This document shows positions 5,504 to 58,409 of a DNA stretch of 64,000 bases, one piece after another. The stretch spans positions 40,474 to 104,473 of the forward strand of contig JAPHEE010000001.1 in assembly GCA_029259545.1 (NCBI GenBank), in the 5' to 3' direction. A program made the translations under genes and the position numbers. The notes beneath the pieces were generated by a model. That model did not search any database, had not been told where the DNA came from, and saw nothing but the letters and a program-made list of their open reading frames with translations. This DNA is from Candidatus Alkanophaga volatiphilum. GTDB taxonomy: Archaea; Halobacteriota; Syntropharchaeia; Alkanophagales; B39-G2. How positions within the stretch are numbered: position 1 is the first letter of the stretch; every line of letters begins with the position of its first letter.

Positions 5504-6763
5504 CTACAGAAGCCTCGGGGGCACAACCTGATTTTTCAGCAAATCATCGTACGTCTCTCTGCGTCTTATGACCTCAGCTTCTCCGTTGTTCACGAGGATT
5601 TCTGCGCATCTGGGTCTGCCGTTGTATTGCGATGACATGGCAAAACCGTAGGCGCCGGCGTCGAAGATCGCGATAATGTCGCCGCGCTCGACTTTGGGGA
5701 GGCGTCGGTCTTTTGCGAGGATGTCGCCGCTCTCGCATATCGGACCGACGATCGTGTACGTTCCGGCGGGGGGTTCGTCGATTTTGTTCGCGACCGCTAC
5801 CTCATGGTAAGCATCGTAGAGCACCGGACGAATCAGGAGGTTGAAGCCAGCGTCAACGGCGACGAAGTGCTTCGCTGCTCTTTTGACGGCGTTCACCCTC
5901 GTGATGAGGATCGTGGTGTTCCCGACGATGTAGCGTCCCGGCTCTAGGATGAGCTTTGGGCGTCGCTTCAGCTTCGCGCCTTTGAACGCCGGTAATATTT
6001 GGGCGGCGAGGTCTTCGGGCGTTGGTGCGGGCTCGTCTTTTTTGTAGGGTATGCCGAGCCCGCCGCCGAGGTCCACGAACTCGAGCTCGATGCCGTGTTC
6101 GTTCAGGCTCTCCACGAGTGCCATCATTTTTTCGGTAGCCTCCTTGAAGACGCTGACGTCGAGGATCTGCGAGCCGATGTGGCAGTGGATGCCGCAGACC
6201 CGGATGCCACCCTCAATCTCCAACTGTTTCGCCTCCTTGTAAGCGTCGAGCACCTCCTCGTAGGGAATTCCAAACTTCGACTCTCTAAGCCCCGTTGCGA
6301 TTTTCGGATGCGTTTCCGGGGAGATATCTGGATTCACTCTGAACGCGATCTCCACATCTCTTCCGAGACGCTTGGCAATTTCCGAGAGCGCATAAAGCTC
6401 ATCGAAGGAATCGACGGAAACGCATACGCCTGAGAGCACCGCAAGCTCCAGTTCCTCATCGCTTTTTGAGTTCCCGTTAAACAGAATTTTCGACGCCGGT
6501 ATTCCGGCGAGCCTTGCGAGGTAAAGCTCGCCGCCTGAGAAAACGTCGGCGCCGGCGCCCTCCTGAGCGAGAATTCTGAGGACCGCCAAATTTCCGTTAG
6601 CCTTGACCGCATAATAGATTTCGGAGTCTACGGACGAAAATGCGTTTTTGAAGCGACGGAAGTTCTCACGCAGCCGCTGCTCGTCCGTGACGTAAAGAGG
6701 CGTGCCGAAACGCTCCGCGAGCTCGACGACATCCACGCCACCGAACATCAGATGCTTGCCCAT
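5504..6763 (-). CDS. lysA: diaminopimelate decarboxylase
   Basis: 419 aa. PLP fold-III decarboxylase signature (YAVKAN, GGGLGIPY, ICESGD). Confidence 0.9.
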   Translation of the reverse strand: MGKHLMFGGVDVVELAERFGTPLYVTDEQRLRENFRRFKNAFSSVDSEIYYAVKANGNLAVLRILAQEGAGADVFSGGELYLARLAGIPASKILFNGNSKSDEELELAVLSGVCVSVDSFDELYALSEIAKRLGRDVEIAFRVNPDISPETHPKIATGLRESKFGIPYEEVLDAYKEAKQLEIEGGIRVCGIHCHIGSQILDVSVFKEATEKMMALVESLNEHGIELEFVDLGGGLGIPYKKDEPAPTPEDLAAQILPAFKGAKLKRRPKLILEPGRYIVGNTTILITRVNAVKRAAKHFVAVDAGFNLLIRPVLYDAYHEVAVANKIDEPPAGTYTIVGPICESGDILAKDRRLPKVERGDIIAIFDAGAYGFAMSSQYNGRPRCAEILVNNGEAEVIRRRETYDDLLKNQVVPPRLL

Positions 6764-23754: not shown

Positions 23755-23905
23755 TGGTAGTTAGCGGCATGGAACGCCGCTCGCGTTATGGATAGTGAGG
23801 ATGGGCTATGAGCGTTTTTAAGCGTCCTCGCTCAAAACGAACTCAAATCACCTGCACATCAACATGCACATCAAATTTTAAACTGCACTATTGTTGGTCT
23901 TTGAT

Positions 23906-25929
23906 CTTTCAATCCCACCTTGGTCTGATTTCTTCTCCTCAGGTGCGACCCGAATGATGTCGCCTATTTCTACCTTTCAATCCCACCTTGGTCTGATTTC
24001 TTCTTGCGAGTCCACGAGCGCTTGAACGAGTTCCGCAGGCTTTCAATCCCACCTTGGTCTGATTTCTTCGAGAACTACGTGCCGGCGTGGCTCGCTCTTG
24101 CGAACGCTTTCAATCCCACCTTGGTCTGATTTCTTCTTCTCCATCAGCTTCAAGGTCGAGGAGGACGAGCTCCTTTCAATCCCACCTTGGTCTGATTTCT
24201 TCGTCACTCCAGTTGCGAATTCCCCACGCGTGGAGCGGCTTTCAATCCCACCTTGGTCTGATTTCTTCCAAGCGCTATCGAGGACACAGAATCCCTTTGC
24301 CAGACTTTCAATCCCACCTTGGTCTGATTTCTTCTCGTTTACAGAGTTGCGAAGATCGAAGCGTGCTTGACTTTCAATCCCACCTTGGTCTGATTTCTTC
24401 GCGAAACGCTCAAGGAGGTCGCAAAGAAGTTCGGCGCTTTCAATCCCACCTTGGTCTGATTTCTTCGAAACGTGGAGAGGGCGTGCCACGTCAGGGCTGC
24501 GTCTTTCAATCCCACCTTGGTCTGATTTCTTCGGAATTACGAGGTTTCGGACTTGCTCGTCGGCATTCAAGCTTTCAATCCCACCTTGGTCTGATTTCTT
24601 CTCGCTCAGCGGCACGACGACACATCCGTCGTTCTCCCTGCTTTCAATCCCACCTTGGTCTGATTTCTTCGCATCGTCGGCGTGCACAGAGTGCCGTATC
24701 TGAACTTCTTTCAATCCCACCTTGGTCTGATTTCTTCCGTGATGGAGGACTACGAAAATGCAAGAATGCTCCCTTTCAATCCCACCTTGGTCTGATTTCT
24801 TCTACGATAGGGAGATGAAATCTCACCTACCATGACATTCTTTCAATCCCACCTTGGTCTGATTTCTTCTTATTCGTAAACATATCCTTCTTTGACCGCT
24901 ACTTTGCTTTCAATCCCACCTTGGTCTGATTTCTTCACTTTGACCCAACCCCTAAATCAACTGCACTTGACACTTTCAATCCCACCTTGGTCTGATTTCT
25001 TCATGATTGCATCCTCCGCCTGTCTTTCAGCATGATCACTTTCAATCCCACCTTGGTCTGATTTCTTCGAGGTGAGTGTGTTGGACAAGCTTGTCATCAT
25101 TCTCTTTCAATCCCACCTTGGTCTGATTTCTTCGAGTTCCTTCTGGGTAGGGTGAAAGCCGTAAAACACCCTTTCAATCCCACCTTGGTCTGATTTCTTC
25201 GGCGACTGGAGCCTCGTCGAAGTTCAGGAGCAGGTCGCTTTCAATCCCACCTTGGTCTGATTTCTTCTGGCGGAGCTGGCGGCAGTATGCTTCTATAACG
25301 TCCTTTCAATCCCACCTTGGTCTGATTTCTTCAAGGCTATCCCGAAGATGCCGAGCAGGATTCTTGCCGCTTTCAATCCCACCTTGGTCTGATTTCTTCT
25401 GGCTCGCCGACATGCCGCCAAGTGATAACCGATGCCTTTCAATCCCACCTTGGTCTGATTTCTTCCGGACCGAAACGCTCATGCTGATGCTTGACCGCAC
25501 CTTTCAATCCCACCTTGGTCTGATTTCTTCAAGCTTTACTAACGTATCTGCCGACACTAACCGACTCTTTCAATCCCACCTTGGTCTGATTTCTTCCTGC
25601 AAACAAGCAAGGCAGACACGATGTAGTTGCACCTTTCAATCCCACCTTGGTCTGATTTCTTCTCTTGTTGCGGTTTTACTGCTTTTCTCTCTAATCGTCT
25701 TTCAATCCCACCTTGGTCTGATTTCTTCGGACAAGCGGGTGCTTGCGTTCCTGCTGGCTCACGACTTTCAATCCCACCTTGGTCTGATTTCTTCACAAAA
25801 TAAGAGAGAACTTGTGGCGGTTAGACGAGAAAGCTTTCAATCCCACCTTGGTCTGATTTCTTCCCTCACAACCCTCGAAACCGTCAATCTAATTACGCTC
25901 TTTCAATCCCACCTTGGTCTGATTTCTTC
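23906..25929 (-). CRISPR. CRISPR array, 31 identical 30-nt repeats, 30 spacers of 35-39 nt
   Basis: The repeat CTTTCAATCCCACCTTGGTCTGATTTCTTC was located by hand at 31 positions. Its reverse complement ends in ATTGAAAG, the canonical 8-nt crRNA 5' handle. Transcription is therefore inferred on the minus strand, with the leader at the 25930 side. Confidence 0.95.
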
Positions 25930-26045
25930 AGGCGCGTTTCTTTTGCTCGTGCTTGGTTTGCGGTTATGCGGGGGCTCCATATAAAGCTTTTCACTCGCAT
26001 CGTCGGTTCCCGCCCCCATATATAAAGAACCTAGACTCTCTTCGC
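25930..26045 (-). promoter_or_regulatory. CRISPR leader with two TATA-like boxes
   Basis: The minus strand reads GGTTCTTTATATATGG ... AAGCTTTATATGG ... GCGCCT and then the first repeat. It is homologous to 62935-63041. Confidence 0.6.
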
Positions 26046-27002: not shown

Positions 27003-27887
27003 TTATCGCTTGAGTGAGTCAAGAACACGCTCGTAAAGCTTCAAGAACTCAGCTCTCCACTCTTCCAGCTCTGAAGCGAAAGGCACCCCCTTCGAATACA
27101 GCCTTGCGATTTCAGGGTCGAGAGGTATTTTCATCAGGATTTCAATGTCTTCCTGCGTGCAGAATTCCTCTATTAGGGCATCACCCTCACCGCTCTTGTT
27201 AAGAACGACGGCAAACGGGATTCCCAGCTTATTTAGCGTATCTACCGCCAGCTTCAGGTCATATAAGCCGAAAGGCGTCGGCTCTGTGACAAGGATGCAG
27301 AAATCACTGCCGAGGACTGAGAAGATCATGGGGCATGCCGTGCCGGGCGGGGCGTCCACGATTATGGCGTGCTGAACGGACGCCGCCTTCCGCACAGCCT
27401 TTATTACAGGCACGGGCATAGGCTCACCGACGTTAAGTTCGCCGTAGGCGACGAAAATCTCTCCGCCATTGACGTGAGCAAGCCCCTTCTTCACGACACC
27501 CACCGCCCGCTCGTCCTCGATGATTGCGTTCCGCTCGCATACGATGGCGCAGCCGCCGCAGCCGTGGCAGAGCTGTGGGAAGACGAGGACGTCGCCGCTC
27601 ACGTTGCGCTCTGGCACGGGACGCACCACGAAAAGCGCATTGAACTCGCAAAACTTTGAGCATGCGCCGCAGAAGTCGCAACGTTCCTTTAAAATCCTCG
27701 GCGTCTTTATGCAGACTGTTTTGGTCTCAATAATTTCGGGCTTTAAGAAAAGGGCAACATTCGGCTCTTCTACGTCACAGTCAAGTAACGCAACGTTCTC
27801 GCCGGCTGAAGAAAGCGAGAGTGCAAGATTAACAGCGACCGTAGTTTTCCCAGTACCTCCCTTCCCGCTCGCCACTGAGATTATCAT
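27003..27887 (-). CDS. MinD/CooC-superfamily P-loop ATPase with inserted 4Fe-4S ferredoxin domain (COG1149-like)
   Basis: SGKGGTGKTT Walker A plus CDFCGACSKFC and CHGCGGCAIVC clusters. Confidence 0.8.
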   Translation of the reverse strand: MIISVASGKGGTGKTTVAVNLALSLSSAGENVALLDCDVEEPNVALFLKPEIIETKTVCIKTPRILKERCDFCGACSKFCEFNALFVVRPVPERNVSGDVLVFPQLCHGCGGCAIVCERNAIIEDERAVGVVKKGLAHVNGGEIFVAYGELNVGEPMPVPVIKAVRKAASVQHAIIVDAPPGTACPMIFSVLGSDFCILVTEPTPFGLYDLKLAVDTLNKLGIPFAVVLNKSGEGDALIEEFCTQEDIEILMKIPLDPEIARLYSKGVPFASELEEWRAEFLKLYERVLDSLKR

Positions 27888-28351
27888 CAGAAGTGCCAGA
27901 AGTGGCGCTCATTCCCGTGTCCGTGCCCATGCCTATGCTCCCTGCAGGTGTCCATTTCAGAAGCTTCCTTAAGCATTCTGGTTTGGAAGTCCCGTATGGC
28001 GTCCCTGACGGTGCCACTTGCGCCGACATAAACCTCGATGCCAAATTGTCGGAACATCGCAAGTGCTTTCGGACCTAAACCTTTACATAAGACTACAGAG
28101 ACGCCTTTCTCTGCTAGAATCTCGGGCGGGTATCCGGAGCCGCCGAAATGCTCGCTGTAATTTTGCAGGACTTCCACGTCGCCTGTTTCTAGATCCACAA
28201 TGGTGAACGTCGGCGCCCTGCCGAAGTGCTCGCAGACGAGGTCGTCGAGTCCCCCTCTGTATGTAGGGACTGCGACTCTGAACTTCGGGCGGTACGCTCT
28301 CGCCATAAGCTCTTGCAATTTCCTTTTGCGAATTGCCTCAAGTTCGTCCAT
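27887..28351 (-). CDS. NifX/NifB-C-terminal-like (dinitrogenase FeMo-cofactor-binding fold) protein with His-rich tail
   Basis: HFGRAPTFTIVDLETG motif. The C-terminal sequence is REHRHGHGHGNERH. Confidence 0.7.
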   Translation of the reverse strand: MDELEAIRKRKLQELMARAYRPKFRVAVPTYRGGLDDLVCEHFGRAPTFTIVDLETGDVEVLQNYSEHFGGSGYPPEILAEKGVSVVLCKGLGPKALAMFRQFGIEVYVGASGTVRDAIRDFQTRMLKEASEMDTCREHRHGHGHGNERHFWHF

Positions 28352-28386
28352 AGCTCTAAAATAAGAAGGGGGAAAATAAAAAAAAG

Positions 28387-28764
28387 TTACTTTTGAAGCT
28401 CTTCAAGTCGCTTCTTTATCTGCGACAGCGCTTCTTCAAGGGATTTCGCCTGCGCCTCGAGCATTGCGATTTCTTGCTCCCTGCTCATCGGCGGTGGTGA
28501 CCAGAGCGGCTGCGGTGGCGTTGCGGTCGGTGGTGTTGCCGTTGCGGTTGGTGGTGTTGTCGGGGGCGTCGTAGGCGCTGGGAACTGCGTCTGCAGGTAA
28601 GAGAGAAACTGCGGAAGCTGTCCAGTTTGCAGGATGTAGCCTGCCGCTGGCGGAAGTCCTGTTGGGCTTCTGCCGAGCCAGCCCGGCGAGAAGCCAAACC
28701 GCAGCCAGCCTGGAAGTCCAGTCAGTCTAAACATCCATCTCCAGCCGTAGCCCATCCGCATCAC
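28387..28764 (-). CDS. DUF5320-like protein (aromatic/Gly head, Pro/Thr linker, C-terminal coiled coil)
   Basis: MGYGWRWMFRL...TPPTTPPTATATPP...SREQEIAMLEAQAKSLEEALSQIKKRLEELQK. An AAGGAGGTG SD lies upstream. The real start may be ATG 28755. Confidence 0.6.
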   Translation of the reverse strand: MMRMGYGWRWMFRLTGLPGWLRFGFSPGWLGRSPTGLPPAAGYILQTGQLPQFLSYLQTQFPAPTTPPTTPPTATATPPTATPPQPLWSPPPMSREQEIAMLEAQAKSLEEALSQIKKRLEELQK

Positions 28765-28794
28765 CTCCTTTCAGTTTAGTTTATCTTGCTTGGC

Positions 28795-28980
28795 TTACCA
28801 GTACCACCATGGCGTCCACATCCACGCCCACGGCAGGCGGTACGGGTAGTACGCCGCCCACCAGCGCCAGCCGTAGTAGTAGGGCGTCCACCAGTACGCC
28901 CACCAGGGCCACCAGTAGGGCATCCACCACGGGAAGAGGAACCAGCCGAGGGGTCCGAGCCCGAACGGCACCTCCACCAC
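28795..28980 (-). CDS. Trp/Tyr-rich micro-protein (61 aa, 18 W, 9 Y)
   Basis: GGGAGGTGG SD and a GTG start 5 nt after the upstream stop. No coiled-coil tail. Coding status is inferred from operon packing only. Confidence 0.5.
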   Translation of the reverse strand: MVEVPFGLGPLGWFLFPWWMPYWWPWWAYWWTPYYYGWRWWAAYYPYRLPWAWMWTPWWYW

Positions 28981-28984
28981 CTCC

Positions 28985-29197
28985 CTACTCTTTTAACTCC
29001 TTAAGCCTCCTCTCGATCTCCTCCAGTCTCGCTTCGAGCGCTGCCTTCTCGCTTTCCAGCATTCGTATCTCGTCCTCCTTGCTCAACGCCCCTGGGGGAC
29101 CCCACGTCCACAGCCACGTCCACGGCTGCCACCACGGCTGCCACCACGACGAGAACCACCACGGCGATGCCCACCACCATGGAAGCCACGGTGGCAT
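28985..29197 (-). CDS. Trp-rich head + DUF5320-like coiled-coil tail micro-protein (70 aa)
   Basis: 14 W in the first 32 residues, then SKEDEIRMLESEKAALEARLEEIERRLKELKE. A TAGGAGGTGG SD lies 7 nt upstream of the ATG. Confidence 0.6.
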   Translation of the reverse strand: MPPWLPWWWASPWWFSSWWQPWWQPWTWLWTWGPPGALSKEDEIRMLESEKAALEARLEEIERRLKELKE

Positions 29198-29210
29198 TTT
29201 TAACCACCTC

Positions 29211-29402
29211 CTACACCGCCCTAACCATGGGGGTTCCGCACTTCGGGCAGGTCATCTGCCGGCACGGCACGCCACGCTGGTGCGGGATGCGATGCCCACA
29301 GTTCGGGCACTCGCACTCGCCGCTGGGTCCACGACCCATACCGCCCCAGCCTCCGCCGCCTCTGCCAGCACCCCTGCCCATGCCTGCGCCACGTCCTGCC
29401 AT
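29211..29402 (-). CDS. G/R-rich head + zinc-ribbon micro-protein (63 aa)
   Basis: MAGRGAGMGRGAGRGGGGWGGMGRG followed by CPNCG...CPKCG. A GGAGGTGG SD is present, and the ATG lies 1 nt after the upstream stop. Confidence 0.55.
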   Translation of the reverse strand: MAGRGAGMGRGAGRGGGGWGGMGRGPSGECECPNCGHRIPHQRGVPCRQMTCPKCGTPMVRAV

Positions 29403-29403
29403 G

Positions 29404-29571
29404 TTACCACCTCCAGTCTACAATACGGCGTCCCCGTCCTTTTCGCCTTACGGCTGCGAAGGCTGCAGTCGCATCTCGCATCCAGCGGCGCGGCGCCGGC
29501 ATCAGACCTGCCCACATGCCGCCATATTGCCCGCGCCTCCTGCACCTGCCTCTTCCCATATTTCCTCGCAT
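29404..29571 (-). CDS. possible G/R-rich micro-protein (55 aa, below ORF-track cutoff)
   Basis: Hand-translated as MRGNMGRGRCRRRGQYGGMWAGLMPAPRRW.... The SD is weak (GAAAGGG). It fills the gap between neighbouring ORFs exactly. Confidence 0.3.
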   Translation of the reverse strand: MRGNMGRGRCRRRGQYGGMWAGLMPAPRRWMRDATAAFAAVRRKGRGRRIVDWRW

Positions 29572-29581
29572 CCCTTTCACA

Positions 29582-29746
29582 TTACCACCACCAGTAGGTC
29601 CACCACGCTGAGGGCATCCACGGCGTTATCGGACCGTAAATGCCGGTCCACCACCAGCGCGGCAACCACGGGAACCACCGGCAGAACGGGAATGGGTTGC
29701 CACGCCAGCCCCAACCTCGCCACCAACCTCTACCCCATGGGGGCAT
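29582..29746 (-). CDS. Trp-rich micro-protein (54 aa, 16 W; below ORF-track cutoff)
   Basis: Hand-translated as MPPWGRGWWRGWGWRGNPFPFCRWFPWLPRWWWTGIYGPITPWMPSAWWTYWWW. An AAGGAGGTGG SD overlaps the upstream stop. Confidence 0.5.
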   Translation of the reverse strand: MPPWGRGWWRGWGWRGNPFPFCRWFPWLPRWWWTGIYGPITPWMPSAWWTYWWW

Positions 29747-29758
29747 GACACCACCTCC

Positions 29759-30415
29759 TTAGCTCTTTAACCTTCTTATCATGTCCTTAACTTCTTTCAA
29801 CTCTTTTTCAAGCCTCTCAATCCGCTCTCTCAGCTCTTGCATGTCAGTTTGCGGCGGCTCGCCGCTCGCCATCGCGGTGGCGCGCCATCCCCCTCTGCGC
29901 CAGCCCTTGCCGCCCCCTCCAAAGCCTGGACCGAAAGCTGGCGGCACCGGCGACGTGAGTGGTGGCATCCAAGTTTGTGGCGGTGTGGGCGGCTGAGCTG
30001 ATGGCGTTTTTATCGTCGCTGATTGCGGCATTGAAGGCGGCGACGCGCCGAAGCTCATGCCGAAGTGCGGGGCGACTGTGGCACCGCCCGCCTCCCTGAG
30101 CTCGCCACGCTTGAACATCTCGACGGCGTCCTTGACGGTGCCGTGCGCGCCTGTAAAAACTCTTATGCCCGCCGCTGAGAGCGTTTGAAAGGCGTTGGGT
30201 CCGACATTTCCGGTGATGACAGCTTCGACGCCGAGACTCACTACGGTCTGCGCAGCCTGAATGCCGGCGCCGCCGGGGGCGTCGGCGCTCTCGTTACGGA
30301 CGGCTTCAAACTCCATGGTCTCAGAGTCCACAATCACGAAATACTGGCAGCGTCCGAACCTTGGATCGACTTGCGCGTCCAGACCATCCGAAGTTGCGGT
30401 CACGCACACCCTCAC
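29759..30415 (-). CDS. NifX-like domain fused to a DUF5320-like Pro/Gly linker and coiled-coil tail
   Basis: GTG 30415 gives MRVCVTATSDG...RFGRCQYFVIVD. The C-terminus is GFGGGGKGWRRGGWR...DMQELRERIERLEKELKEVKDMIRRLKS. Alternative ATG starts exist at 30445 and upstream. Confidence 0.65.
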   Translation of the reverse strand: MRVCVTATSDGLDAQVDPRFGRCQYFVIVDSETMEFEAVRNESADAPGGAGIQAAQTVVSLGVEAVITGNVGPNAFQTLSAAGIRVFTGAHGTVKDAVEMFKRGELREAGGATVAPHFGMSFGASPPSMPQSATIKTPSAQPPTPPQTWMPPLTSPVPPAFGPGFGGGGKGWRRGGWRATAMASGEPPQTDMQELRERIERLEKELKEVKDMIRRLKS

Positions 30416-30731: not shown

Positions 30732-30831
30732 GAAGACGTCTCAGCAGACCTCGTGACCACTACAGTTAGTCCAAGAGGGGGTGCTGAAAAGAGAAAAGGG
30801 AAGACGTCTCAGCAGACCTCGTGACCACTAC
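30732..30831 (+). repeat. CRISPR-like mini-array: 2 x 32-nt direct repeat with a 36-nt spacer
   Basis: GAAGACGTCTCAGCAGACCTCGTGACCACTAC occurs at 30732-30763 and 30800-30831. The 68-nt period equals the period of the main array. An ATTTATAC TATA-like box lies ~45 nt upstream. Confidence 0.5.
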
Positions 30832-31800: not shown

Positions 31801-32670
31801 TTACACTCTTAGTGTCGCTTCCAAGCACTCCCACACCCTTTTCATCTCAATGGCAGCTGGCGAGCGTGGCGAGCATTCCACGACCGGCTTCCCCATCGCC
31901 AGCGCCCGCATCACCGCCACGTCGTACGGAACCCTGCCGACCACCTCCACGCCCTCCGCCTCGCAGAACCTTTCCATCTCGACCGCCATTTCCGCATTCA
32001 AGTCGTATCTGTTTATGCAGACGAATGGGCGTACGTTGAAGTGTCGAGCCAGCCGGAGTACACGCTCCAAGTCGTGAAGCCCGCTGACCGTAGGCTCCGT
32101 CACGATCAATGCGGCGTCGACGCCGCTGAGTGTGGAGATGACTGGACACCCGATGCCCGGCGGCCCATCTATTAGTATCAAGCGGCAAGCCTCCCGCTCT
32201 GCGACGCTCAATGCGTTTTGCCGCACCACCGTCACGAGCTTTCCGGAATTCTCCTCCGCCGCATTTAGAACGGCGTGCGACAAGAAACCGTACTTCGTCC
32301 TTGAGAGGAACACATAACCCGAAACCTTTTCTTGCAGCGTTATTGCTTTTTCAGGGCACACGACAACGCAGACGCCGCACCCCTCACATAAAATTTCGTC
32401 CACCTCTCCCTTCTCTATCGCATCAAATCTACAAAACTCCTCACATCTCCCGCAGGCGGTGCATTTTTCTCCGTCCACCACCGCCACCTTTGCGCCCCGA
32501 AACTCCTCCCGTCTTAGAACTTCGGGCTTCAGAATGAGATGCAAGTCCGGGGCGTCAACGTCGCAGTCTGCCAGCACTTTGCGCTCAGCCAACGCTGCAA
32601 ACACCGCTACTATTGAAGTTTTGCCGGTGCCGCCCTTCCCGCTGACCACCGCAAGCTGCCGTATGCTCAT
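31801..32670 (-). CDS. MinD/CooC-superfamily P-loop ATPase with inserted ferredoxin domain, second paralogue
   Basis: SGKGGTGKTS Walker A plus CTACGRCEEFC and CEGCGVCVVVCP. Confidence 0.8.
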   Translation of the reverse strand: MSIRQLAVVSGKGGTGKTSIVAVFAALAERKVLADCDVDAPDLHLILKPEVLRREEFRGAKVAVVDGEKCTACGRCEEFCRFDAIEKGEVDEILCEGCGVCVVVCPEKAITLQEKVSGYVFLSRTKYGFLSHAVLNAAEENSGKLVTVVRQNALSVAEREACRLILIDGPPGIGCPVISTLSGVDAALIVTEPTVSGLHDLERVLRLARHFNVRPFVCINRYDLNAEMAVEMERFCEAEGVEVVGRVPYDVAVMRALAMGKPVVECSPRSPAAIEMKRVWECLEATLRV

Positions 32671-52752: not shown

Positions 52753-53068
52753 GGGTGCGGGCTAGCCCGGGGGGCTCGGCGTCCCCTGTGACCCGAAACC
52801 GTCGATATGCGGGGGGCGAAGCTCGAGGGCGGCTTCCGCTTGCCGTCGCGTCACGCAGGGCTTAACGGTGAGGCATCGTCCTGCGGGGCCGCCGTTGGCG
52901 TGGCGGCTGGCTGGAGGGCCGGTCGTGCGCCTTTGCCGCGGGCACCGGTTTAGGCCCGGAAGGGAGCAGACCCACCGTGGGCGGTCGGCGCTCGTGGGGT
53001 AGCGGTGCTGAGCGACGCCCTGTGGCGGCGTTGCGGCAATGAAGCCCACCGAGAGCGTGCCCGCACCC
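52753..53068 (+). ncRNA. signal recognition particle RNA (archaeal 7S RNA)
   Basis: 316 nt. 5' GGGTGCGGGC pairs with 3' GCCCGCACCC. The conserved helix-8 motif AGGCCCGGAAGGGAGCAG is present. A TTTATTT box lies ~25 nt upstream and a T-tract lies downstream. Confidence 0.85.
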
Positions 53069-57737: not shown

Positions 57738-58409
57738 GTGATAAGGGTGGCGTTGATCGGGAATCCGAACGTGGGCAAGACCGTGATTTTCAACCACCTG
57801 ACCGGCGCTCGCCAGTACGTTGGGAACTGGCCGGGCGTGACGGTCGAGAAGAAGGTGGGACGCTGTACTCATCGTGGCGTTGAGATGGAGGTCGTGGACC
57901 TCCCCGGCGTCTACAGCCTGACCGCCCGCTCGCCCGACGAGCTGATCGCCCGTGATTACATCGTTGAGGAGAAGCCGGACGTCGTCGTTGACATCGTGGA
58001 CGCCTCGAACCTCGAAAGGAACTTGTATCTGACGCTGTTGCTGCTCGAACTCGAAGCGAACGTCGTCGTTGCGTTGAACATGATGGACGTCGCCGCCTCC
58101 GAGGGCTACGAGGTCGATGCCGGCATGCTCTCGAAGCTTCTGGGCGTGCCGGTCGTGCCGTGCGTCGCAACCCGTGGCGAGGGCATCGAGGCGCTCAAGG
58201 ACGCCATAGTCGATGCGGCGACGCGTAAGGAGCGGCGTCGTGTCGCGTTCGGCTTCGGCGACGAGATCGAAGATGCGATAAAGCGGGTCGAGGCGGTGCT
58301 TTCCAGAAGCGGGAGCGAGGAGCTTTCCAGATACCCGCTGAGATGGCTTGCGATCAAGCTCCTTGAGGGCGATGAGCGTGTCGAGGCGCTCGTTTCCAAG
58401 TTCGTTTAG
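57738..58409 (+). CDS. feoB: FeoB N-terminal GTPase + helical domain (separate ORF)
   Basis: ALIGNPNVGKT G1 motif, DLPG G3 motif and NMMD G4 motif. Confidence 0.8.
   Translation: MIRVALIGNPNVGKTVIFNHLTGARQYVGNWPGVTVEKKVGRCTHRGVEMEVVDLPGVYSLTARSPDELIARDYIVEEKPDVVVDIVDASNLERNLYLTLLLLELEANVVVALNMMDVAASEGYEVDAGMLSKLLGVPVVPCVATRGEGIEALKDAIVDAATRKERRRVAFGFGDEIEDAIKRVEAVLSRSGSEELSRYPLRWLAIKLLEGDERVEALVSKFV

Follow-up and report, generated by a model that had tools for sequence, protein, structure and literature searches.

We analyzed a stretch of 64,000 nucleotides (nt) from the archaeon “Candidatus Alkanophaga volatiphilum” (assembly GCA_029259545.1, contig JAPHEE010000001.1, positions 40,474 to 104,473), here called the window, in which nine tightly packed genes occupy the minus strand at 27003-30415. 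Three of the proteins encoded by this operon end in a short coiled coil, and we are highly confident that these tails are the C-terminal coiled-coil module of DUF5320 (PF17253) and that the operon is the Alkanophagales version of an anaerobe gene cluster of the orange protein (ORP) type. The parts of such a cluster are an ORP-like NifX protein, a second NifX-like protein, paired MinD-ferredoxin ATPases, and low-complexity mini-proteins of the DUF5320 type. DUF5320 itself is a Pfam label without a function, with members in archaea and anaerobic bacteria. The system is thus known but uncharacterized, and the operon is a lineage-specific Trp-rich variant of it that lacks the canonical head.

Coiled-coil tails

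An earlier note, made from the letters of the DNA, had described the same tail in four proteins of the operon and listed three of them. All three open reading frames (ORFs) are present on the minus strand at the positions it gave. DUF5320_125 (28387-28764; 125 amino acids [aa]) has a GYGWRWMFRLTGLPGWLRFGFSPGW head, a Pro/Thr linker, and the tail at aa 93-125 (nt 28387-28488). W_tail70 (28985-29197; 70 aa) has a Trp-rich head (aa 1-37) followed by the tail (aa 38-70, nt 28985-29086), and NifX_tail (29759-30415; 218 aa) joins a NifX domain, a linker, and the tail. The GTG start of NifX_tail was taken as annotated in the orthologue of “Ca. Alkanophaga liquidiphilum.”

To search for tails we used a profile of 55 tails from other genomes, leaving out this genome and its two nearest relatives. 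Against the six-frame translation of the window it retrieved exactly three segments, in DUF5320_125 (E = 1e-12), W_tail70 (1e-8), and NifX_tail (2e-8), and the next match had an E value of 0.22. The same three were the only significant matches among the 24,569 six-frame segments of the whole genome (1.85 Mb), where the Pfam model of DUF5320 also matched only these three places. There are therefore three tails and not four; the remaining four mini-ORFs (W54, RG58, RGZn63, and W61) and the second NifX-like protein, NifX_B, have none. Each tail is a helix about 30 residues long in which eight common a/d positions, spread across 25 residues, are hydrophobic, and all three fit the amphipathic-helix consensus of DUF5320 (..LExxxxxLExxLxxIKKRIEEL).

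The tails were then compared with hidden Markov models (HMMs) of tails fused to NifX domains (fusion type) and of tails in separate proteins (stand-alone type). The tail of NifX_tail scored 34.2 bits against the fusion-type HMM and 6.9 bits against the stand-alone one, while that of W_tail70 gave 37.2 bits with the stand-alone HMM and 9.7 bits with the fusion type; the tail of DUF5320_125 scored in both (36 bits fusion type, 49 bits stand-alone). The two stand-alone tails are identical at 14 of 30 residues, and the fusion tail shares only 6 to 7 of 30 with either. Since subtype scores and residue identities differ in this way, the three tails are not recent copies of one another. They fall into two separately conserved subtypes, fusion and stand-alone, which co-exist in single operons across many lineages. 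The difference between the subtypes is compatible with hetero-association, without proving it. Manual inspection of the e/g salt-bridge positions of the three tails, over 3.5 heptads, gave no clear signal for homo- or hetero-pairing and was not used as evidence.

The assignment to DUF5320, which the earlier note had suggested, was borne out by PF17253, whose curated gathering cut-off is 27 bits. W_tail70 lies above it (28.4 bits), and DUF5320_125 (24.2 bits, E = 8e-5, profile positions 63-99) and NifX_tail (22.4 bits, E = 3e-4) lie below. Orthologous fusions elsewhere have PF17253 among their precomputed domains. With PF17253 the window proteins share the C-terminal coiled coil (profile positions ~35-99), a GLPGW-type segment in DUF5320_125, the gene neighborhood, and the occurrence of NifX-DUF5320 fusions. 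They differ in that two of the three tail proteins stay under the curated cut-off and in that segments of 20 to 38% Trp take the place of the canonical N-terminal half.

Canonical DUF5320 proteins begin with an N-terminal motif (MPGGDRTGPxGxGPxTGRGxGYC) and continue through Arg/Gly-aromatic repeats and a W..YYATGLPGW segment to a spacer and the tail. Neither the window nor the genome encodes the canonical head, and every PF17253 match in the genome begins at profile position 35 or later. The proposed likeness of the G/R/aromatic head to DUF5320 thus fails for the canonical head and holds for the later part, because DUF5320_125, with its G/W/R-aromatic segment before the Pro/Thr linker, shares the GLPGW-type aromatic/Arg segment with the family. 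The heads do differ from one another as had been described (Trp-rich, G/W/R-rich, Pro/Thr-rich, or a whole NifX domain). W54, RG58, and RGZn63 were also considered as diverged canonical heads, an idea that came from a by-eye likeness (an MP..G..G pattern and a Cys at position 22/23), and it was rejected as unproven when an HMM of 38 canonical heads scored them no better than shuffled sequences. The same was true of the W54 homologues of the sister family. The missing canonical head and the expansion of Trp-rich heads are lineage-specific traits.

NifX-like proteins and the NifX-tail fusion

The NifX domain of NifX_tail (aa 1-118, nt 30062-30415) matches Nitro_FeMo-Co (PF02579) with E = 1e-27. 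Its best match in the PDB is the Desulfovibrio orange protein ORP (2WFB, E = 2e-22, residues 2-111), with TM1290 (1RDU) and MTH1175 (1EO1, E = 1e-18) as further relatives. The domain is followed by a disordered, Pro-rich linker of 70 aa (nt 29852-30061; pI 11.7; 16 Pro, 12 Gly, 6 aromatic, and 5 cationic residues), which ends in GFGGGGKGWRRGGWR, and by the coiled-coil tail of 28 residues (nt 29759-29851). An AlphaFold2 model gave predicted local distance difference test (pLDDT) values >93 for the domain, <60 for the linker, and 79-94 for a single helix at residues 190-217.

The earlier note had proposed looking for such fusions in other genomes, and the same architecture was found in 41 of the 120 best homologues, so the NifX-tail fusion is a standard form. 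Carriers include Syntrophoarchaeum (Syntropharchaeia), Methanosarcinales, other Methanomicrobia, and Desulfobacteria, and the best named homologues are those of “Ca. Alkanophaga liquidiphilum.” The standard architecture runs from the NifX domain through (GMGRG)n repeats and a P/Q-rich spacer to a tail with the consensus ..LEKxLEEVKKRIEELK. The local peculiarity is that the Pro-rich linker ending in GFGGGGKGWRRGGWR replaces the GMGRG repeats.

The second NifX-like protein, NifX_B (27887-28351, minus strand; 154 aa), matches PF02579 with E = 2e-25, contains the motifs CEHFGRAP and CREHRH, and finds its best PDB matches in TM1816 (1O13/1T3V). Against the MrpORP model NF041136 it aligns to the Di-Nase part only (positions 258-360), with 55.6 bits for a cut-off of 450 (E = 5e-15). 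Fusions of the NifX_A-NifX_B type exist as well (e.g., P0006). NifX_B starts with an amphipathic helix of 20 residues (MDELEAIRKRKLQELMARAY) that is kept in “Ca. A. liquidiphilum” and in the sister genome L007 (GCA_054799035), is absent from sister-family orthologues, and is not matched by the tail profile. Its C terminus is His-rich (HRHGHGHGNERH).

Gene neighborhood and modularity across genomes

DUF5320 was found in 152 of 301 sampled genomes of the phylum, corresponding to 59 of 100 genera. In control searches, Methanosarcina acetivorans gave a DUF5320 match that exceeded the cut-off. In 17 of the 30 best loci of the phylum a NifX or MinD-ferredoxin gene lies within 1.5 kb, and in five more there is an RG/zinc-ribbon protein. 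We surveyed 12 kb around 40 DUF5320 loci from 40 genomes, clustering the neighbors and naming recurrent clusters by Pfam. Within 6 kb, NifX occurred at 17 of the 40 loci, MinD-ferredoxin and DUF134 at 15 each, radical SAM and metallo-beta-lactamase fold proteins at 10 each, ABC ATPases at 7, FeoB and the DtxR-type iron repressor at 6 each, and FeoA at 4. For FeoB the chance expectation is about 0.4 loci, a rough estimate from one to two feoB genes per 2-Mb genome and not a computed test. The association of DUF5320 with NifX-like and MinD-ferredoxin genes, named in the earlier note, therefore holds in the operon itself as well as in the survey loci.

The survey also agreed with the description of the family as modular, since heads and tails are fused, split into adjacent genes, or swapped. 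Head and tail stand in one ORF at 13 of the 40 loci; head-only ORFs occur at 28, some of them carrying a fused zinc ribbon with or without DUF134, and tails with another head or with no canonical head at 14. An exhaustive search of representative proteins with DUF5320_125 returned 117 clusters at E ≤ 1e-3 among 1.84 billion proteins, including proteins of 49-60 aa that consist of the tail alone. In ten genomes of one family, a head-only gene overlaps a tail-bearing one (L072, L074, L076, L077, and L087-L092; e.g., 6024-6206 and 6194-6436 in L072). The split point is identical in all ten, and the head-only gene ends ..RRWW; the arrangement represents either a stably split gene whose parts are translationally coupled or a programmed frameshift. 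Two other arrangements were seen: a 165-aa protein of three modules, a DUF134 helix-turn-helix (HTH) domain, an MPGGDGTGP Arg/Gly head, and a zinc ribbon of the RGZn63 type (L016 1847-2344, L017 954-1451, and L031 1952-2446), and, from the search of representative proteins, DUF5320-type proteins with two tandem coiled-coil tails separated by a Pro/Tyr-rich spacer (P0154, P0157, and P0207). Taken together, the modules of the family are a helix of 3.5 heptads, cationic Arg/Gly-aromatic disordered segments, a Cys-containing N-terminal motif, the GLPGW segment, a Trp core, a zinc ribbon, and the NifX domain.

Mini-genes of the operon

Six mini-genes lie between the two NifX genes, and the order of all nine genes is identical in L007. 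A GGAGGTG Shine-Dalgarno sequence stands 5-9 nt ahead of every mini-ORF, intergenic gaps are 1-13 nt, and the ratio of nonsynonymous to synonymous substitution rates (dN/dS) against L007 is 0.05-0.41 over all ORFs in the proposed frames. Judged by these sequence features, the mini-ORFs are real genes.

Next to NifX_tail lies W54 (29582-29746; 54 aa, 30% Trp, pI 11.4), a tail-less protein with its own Shine-Dalgarno sequence and a dN/dS of 0.16, homologues of which directly follow the fusion gene in 42 of the 79 genomes of the class. RG58 (29404-29580; 58 aa) is Arg/Gly-rich, with 15 Arg, a net charge of +15, one Cys, and a DWRW end. Its ORF exactly fills the space between the neighboring genes and is 74% identical in L007 (dN/dS 0.28); “Ca. 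A. liquidiphilum” has a weaker 42-aa Arg/Gly ORF at this position, and profile searches with RG58 gave no family match. RGZn63 (29211-29402; 63 aa, net charge +7) combines an Arg/Gly head with a four-Cys zinc ribbon (CPNCG...CPKCG; Zn_Ribbon_1, E = 9e-5) and has a dN/dS of 0.06. Its orthologues keep the same operon position across the order and are also present in distant genomes, some having the canonical MPGGDGTGP motif at the N terminus or a DUF134 HTH domain as fusion partner.

DUF5320_125 (dN/dS 0.05) likewise has orthologues across the order. W_tail70 and W61 (28795-28980; 61 aa) were found only in this species and L007. A word-index search with W_tail70 gave no scorable candidates; the gene is nonetheless certainly coding, because its tail matches the family profiles. 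W61, a tail-less and nearly uncharged protein with 30% Trp and 20% Phe plus Tyr, is 98% identical in L007 and absent from the 78 other genomes of the class. We take it as a gene on the basis of its ribosome-binding site (GGGAGGTGGTG), tight packing (the start lies 4 nt past the preceding stop), and conservation in L007. At the DNA level W61 is nearly identical to L007 1477-1662 (2 differences in 186 nt), with a synonymous rate (dS) of 0.03; W_tail70 is also low (0.17), and the neighboring genes range from 0.35 to 1.2. The low value of W61 could reflect nucleotide-level constraint, recent exchange, or the single Trp codon and few synonymous sites. An origin of tail plus W61 by recent duplication of tail plus W54 was rejected, as a DNA alignment was similar only at the stop/Shine-Dalgarno junction.

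The Trp content of these proteins is extreme: 30% in W54 and W61, and 20% in W_tail70 as a whole, whose head reaches 38%. Only four six-frame segments of the genome contain at least 11 Trp per 40 residues. Three are W54, W61, and W_tail70, and the fourth (contig C48) was discarded as an antisense frame of a real 223-aa gene. W_tail70 and W61 carry a net charge of 0 to +1. W54 has a conserved core, GNPFPFCRWFPWLPRWWWTGIYGPITPW, with the invariant residues C, R, F, P, W, P, R, W, and W within CRWFPWLPRWWWTGIYGPITP. Of 28 homologues from other phyla, 6 carry this core in direct fusion with a DUF5320 tail, including a protein of a Nitrososphaeria archaeon that is annotated as DUF5320, for which reason W54 is a head module of the DUF5320 kit. 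AlphaFold2 with the 28 homologues gave no confident fold (pLDDT 54). Sister-family homologues of W54 are rich in Gly, Phe, and Arg with the core unchanged, so that the extreme Trp content reflects drift confined to Alkanophagales; in another family, both halves have variants that are Trp-rich to a milder degree. Four distant loci with W54 homologues come from an unassigned metagenome contig, Nitrososphaeria, Calescamantes, and Omnitrophota, and all four have both a stand-alone DUF5320 gene and a NifX-DUF5320 fusion. One of them opens with a Fur gene that overlaps the first mini-gene, and another adjoins FeoAB, DtxR, and DUF134.

Operon surroundings

The operon closes with MinDFd_B (27003-27887, minus strand), a MinD/ParA-type ATPase of the Orp3/Orp4 kind with an inserted 2x[4Fe-4S] ferredoxin domain. 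It matches ParA, CbiA, and Fer4 and, in part, the MrpORP and minD_arch profiles, and its start overlaps the stop of NifX_B. A T-run directly follows the stop codon of DUF5320_125, and, judging from the sequence alone, NifX_B and MinDFd_B may therefore form a second transcript. Upstream of NifX_tail there is an A/T-rich, TATA-like stretch. A paralogous ATPase, MinDFd_A (31801-32670, minus strand; CbiA, ParA, and Fer4 matches), lies 1.4 kb upstream and is probably transcribed separately, with repeat-bearing noncoding DNA in between. The repeats are two exact 32-nt direct copies (30732-30763 and 30800-30831), 68 nt apart. In other genomes (L010 and L032) the A-type and B-type ATPase genes adjoin each other. 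The operon of “Ca. A. liquidiphilum” borders a ZnuA/ABC-3 metal transporter and an ArsP permease.

Just downstream of the operon, past a decayed SixA-like gene, there is a large array of clustered regularly interspaced short palindromic repeats (CRISPR) at ~23900-25930, with repeated peptide motifs in all frames. A match to the FeoB N-terminal domain (~57744-58208, E = 2e-68) stands in an open frame of only 229 aa, a split or truncated feoB; at 27 kb from the operon it is not an operon neighbor. An Rfam scan of the whole window found an archaeal signal recognition particle RNA and a tRNA, at 52755-53066 and 712-783. The supplements of the Alkanophaga paper make no mention of the operon genes.

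Comparison with known systems

The Pyrococcus furiosus protein IssA (PF2025) is a storage protein for iron and sulfide, which it holds as anionic thioferrate in particles that reach 300 nm, and its disordered tail, Pro-rich and then Gly/aromatic/cationic (W/G/R) with a pI of 10.7, has been proposed to wrap the thioferrate (PMC5524996). NifX_tail has in common with IssA an N-terminal IPR003731/NifX-type domain, a disordered segment of about 70 residues that is Pro-rich and then Gly/Trp/Arg-rich, and few Cys, and the length and composition of its linker agree with what has been published for the IssA tail. The W/G/R chemistry of that tail is also found in the stand-alone mini-proteins. By the same published description, NifX_tail differs in ending with an additional acidic/basic coiled coil, and most of the sticky low-complexity material is here encoded by separate genes. 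For the IssA clade, in which MTH1175 has been placed (PMC5524996), the defining features are an IPR003731 domain, a pI of at least 9, fewer than 5 Cys, and a Gly content of 20% or more over the last 40 residues (Vaccaro et al. 2017, supplement). NifX_tail has the IPR003731/Nitro_FeMo-Co domain and 2 Cys; its pI and Gly content are taken up below.

In Desulfovibrio vulgaris Hildenborough, the ORP complex and orp operons comprise Orp3, Orp4, Orp5, Orp8, and Orp9/MrpORP (PMC6345978, PMC8359166). ORP holds the cluster [S2MoS2CuS2MoS2]3- non-covalently, Orp3, Orp4, and Orp8 co-purify, MrpORP passes Fe-S clusters to Orp3/Orp4 and is polar, and the complex has been linked to cell division (PMC6345978). 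The window resembles this system in its two paralogous MinD-like ATPases with 2x[4Fe-4S] ferredoxin motifs (27003-27887 and 31801-32670), which are like Orp3/Orp4, and in the single NifX-like domain of NifX_tail, which is closest to ORP/Orp8 (2WFB). Unlike in MrpORP, no Mrp/NBP35 P-loop is fused to the second NifX domain; in sister-family relatives a separate Mrp-like gene precedes the fusion. Further differences are the linker and coiled coil that extend the ORP-like domain, the six low-complexity mini-genes between the NifX genes, and the lack of sigma-54/OrpR control, which follows from the host being an archaeon. To our knowledge, archaea have no sigma-54. On the Desulfovibrio side, DVU2107 is left undescribed in the sigma-54 regulome paper.

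McdB is the adaptor of the ParA-type ATPase McdA in carboxysome positioning (PMC10554743, PMC11321042, PMC7182216). Its invariant C-terminal Trp is needed for cargo binding, and its disordered region and coiled coil drive condensates (PMC11321042, PMC10554743). The likeness is one of working only: small proteins with a disordered region, a coiled coil, and a C-terminal Trp, encoded beside a ParA/MinD-family ATPase. The ATPases here differ in their ferredoxin inserts, the presumed cargo would be a metal-cluster protein and not a microcompartment, and no homology is claimed.

Proposed mechanism and alternatives

Our best explanation overall, held with moderate confidence, is the DUF5320/ORP-type identity combined with an assembly like those of IssA and ORP. 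The assembly mechanism taken by itself, in which we infer every step by analogy, is put forward tentatively and is open to considerable doubt. Like ORP and IssA, the NifX/ORP-like domain would bind an anionic inorganic metal-sulfide species non-covalently, and the cationic and aromatic disordered heads and linkers would form a coat around it, a role also proposed for the W/G/R tail of IssA. Oligomerization of the short amphipathic helix, either with itself or between fusion-type and stand-alone-type tails, would give a multivalent particle in which several NifX domains are combined with several sticky heads. Those Trp- and Arg-rich mini-proteins that have no tail could join through aromatic and cation-pi contacts and not through a coiled coil, and the MinD-ferredoxin ATPases and NifX_B might load, unload, or position the material. 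The earlier note saw the coiled coil as the means of bringing the mini-proteins together in one complex, which is a reasonable hypothesis for the tail-bearing members only; as the other four have no tail, it covers just two of the six mini-proteins. The cluster probably handles iron-sulfur material, iron sulfide being favored over Mo/W because of the iron-regulator neighbors at DUF5320 loci.

Several points weigh against this explanation. Four of the six mini-proteins are tail-less. NifX_tail departs from the IssA clade in its pI (6.75, compared with at least 9) and in having 1 Gly in its last 40 residues, in both cases because a coiled coil has been added at the C terminus. The ORP cluster is Mo-Cu-S, and the phenotype reported for the ORP complex is cell division and not storage. 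The iron-regulator link comes from other genomes, where it is a minority (6 of 40 loci), and the operon in the window has no Feo, DtxR, Fur, or DUF134 neighbor. Finally, no DUF5320 protein is known to have been studied experimentally, and the papers found to name DUF5320 do not address function.

Four alternatives were weighed. If the three tails were unrelated generic coiled coils, alike merely through their charged-heptad composition, there would be no family to explain; the two Pfam scores below the gathering cut-off and the 6 to 7 of 30 residues shared by the fusion tail with the other two would fit this. The specificity tests speak strongly against it: profiles from other genomes pick out only these three among the 24,569 segments, each subtype is conserved with orthologues in many lineages, and all three tails lie within 2 kb in a gene context typical of the family, which leaves this possibility scarcely credible. 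DUF5320-type proteins could instead be McdB-like adaptors that coat an ORP/NifX cargo and couple it to the MinD-ferredoxin ATPases for positioning or segregation, their role being mainly spatial and not chemical. Small proteins with disordered and coiled-coil parts do consistently adjoin MinD/ParA-type ATPases with a deviant Walker A motif, many tail-less heads end in Trp as McdB does (YWWW in W54, WWYW in W61, DWRW in RG58, and RRWW in the split-gene heads), and both the polarity of MrpORP and the tie of the ORP complex to cell division (PMC6345978) would suit such a role. Against this, the ferredoxin inserts of the ATPases point to redox or cluster chemistry, 25 of the 40 DUF5320 loci have no MinD-ferredoxin gene within 6 kb, and fusion of the tail to the NifX domain itself agrees with self-assembly of the cargo as well as with an adaptor. 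Sequence similarity to McdB would not be expected, and we regard the adaptor role as unlikely.

A third possibility concerns the metal: the system might handle a Mo/W-Cu-sulfide cluster as the orange protein does, in metal detoxification or in Mo/W trafficking and not in the storage or delivery of iron-sulfur material. This would agree with ORP as the closest PDB relative of the NifX_tail domain (2WFB, E = 2e-22), with the non-covalently bound [S2MoS2CuS2MoS2]3- of ORP (PMC6345978), and with the metal transporter and ArsP permease beside the operon of “Ca. A. liquidiphilum.” However, the regulators and transporters that recur at DUF5320 loci are for iron (FeoAB, DtxR, and Fur) and not for molybdate or tungstate, and MTH1175, of the IssA clade (PMC5524996), scores nearly equal to ORP; a Mo/W role is quite unlikely. 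The Arg/Gly heads might also be nucleic-acid-binding or regulatory modules that signal the state of NifX/MinD to regulators of the DUF134 or Fur type, in which case the mini-proteins would have no structural part in a metal-sulfide assembly. RGG-type segments are classic RNA binders, the MPGGDGTGP head and the RG/zinc-ribbon module are fused to the DUF134 HTH in several genomes (L016, L017, and L031), and DUF134 is among the most frequent neighbors (15 of 40 loci). Yet Trp-rich heads with charges of 0 to +1 (W_tail70 and W61) would be poor nucleic-acid binders, the tail is fused to a cofactor-binding and not to a DNA-binding domain, and the only DUF134 gene of the genome is on another contig, which makes a regulatory role very unlikely.

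Implications

Within the IssA/ORP-like explanation a more specific picture can be drawn, although it is a long shot. The DUF5320 mini-proteins would be detachable, interchangeable versions of the IssA tail. Two cognate coiled-coil subtypes, one borne by the ORP-like NifX domain and the other by the free heads, would cross-link them into a multi-component Arg/Trp (cation-pi) scaffold on which strict anaerobes template a polymer or particle of iron sulfide. Positioning or loading would fall to the paired MinD-ferredoxin ATPases, much as McdAB serves carboxysomes. If this were true, the Alkanophagales proteins with 30% Trp would be the thermophile extreme of such a scaffold.

The combination of DUF5320, ORP-like NifX, and MinD-ferredoxin is among the most widespread uncharacterized clusters of strict anaerobes, being present in half of the sampled genomes of the phylum and in several bacterial phyla. 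The locus described here shows it as a kit of exchangeable parts, with two tail subtypes and a Trp core that is tail-less here but tail-fused elsewhere. Together these features may provide a concrete model for generalizing IssA, the only characterized relative, to iron-sulfide storage on a disordered cationic and aromatic scaffold. The proteins of 54-70 residues with 20 to 30% Trp are, in addition, unusual objects for protein chemistry.

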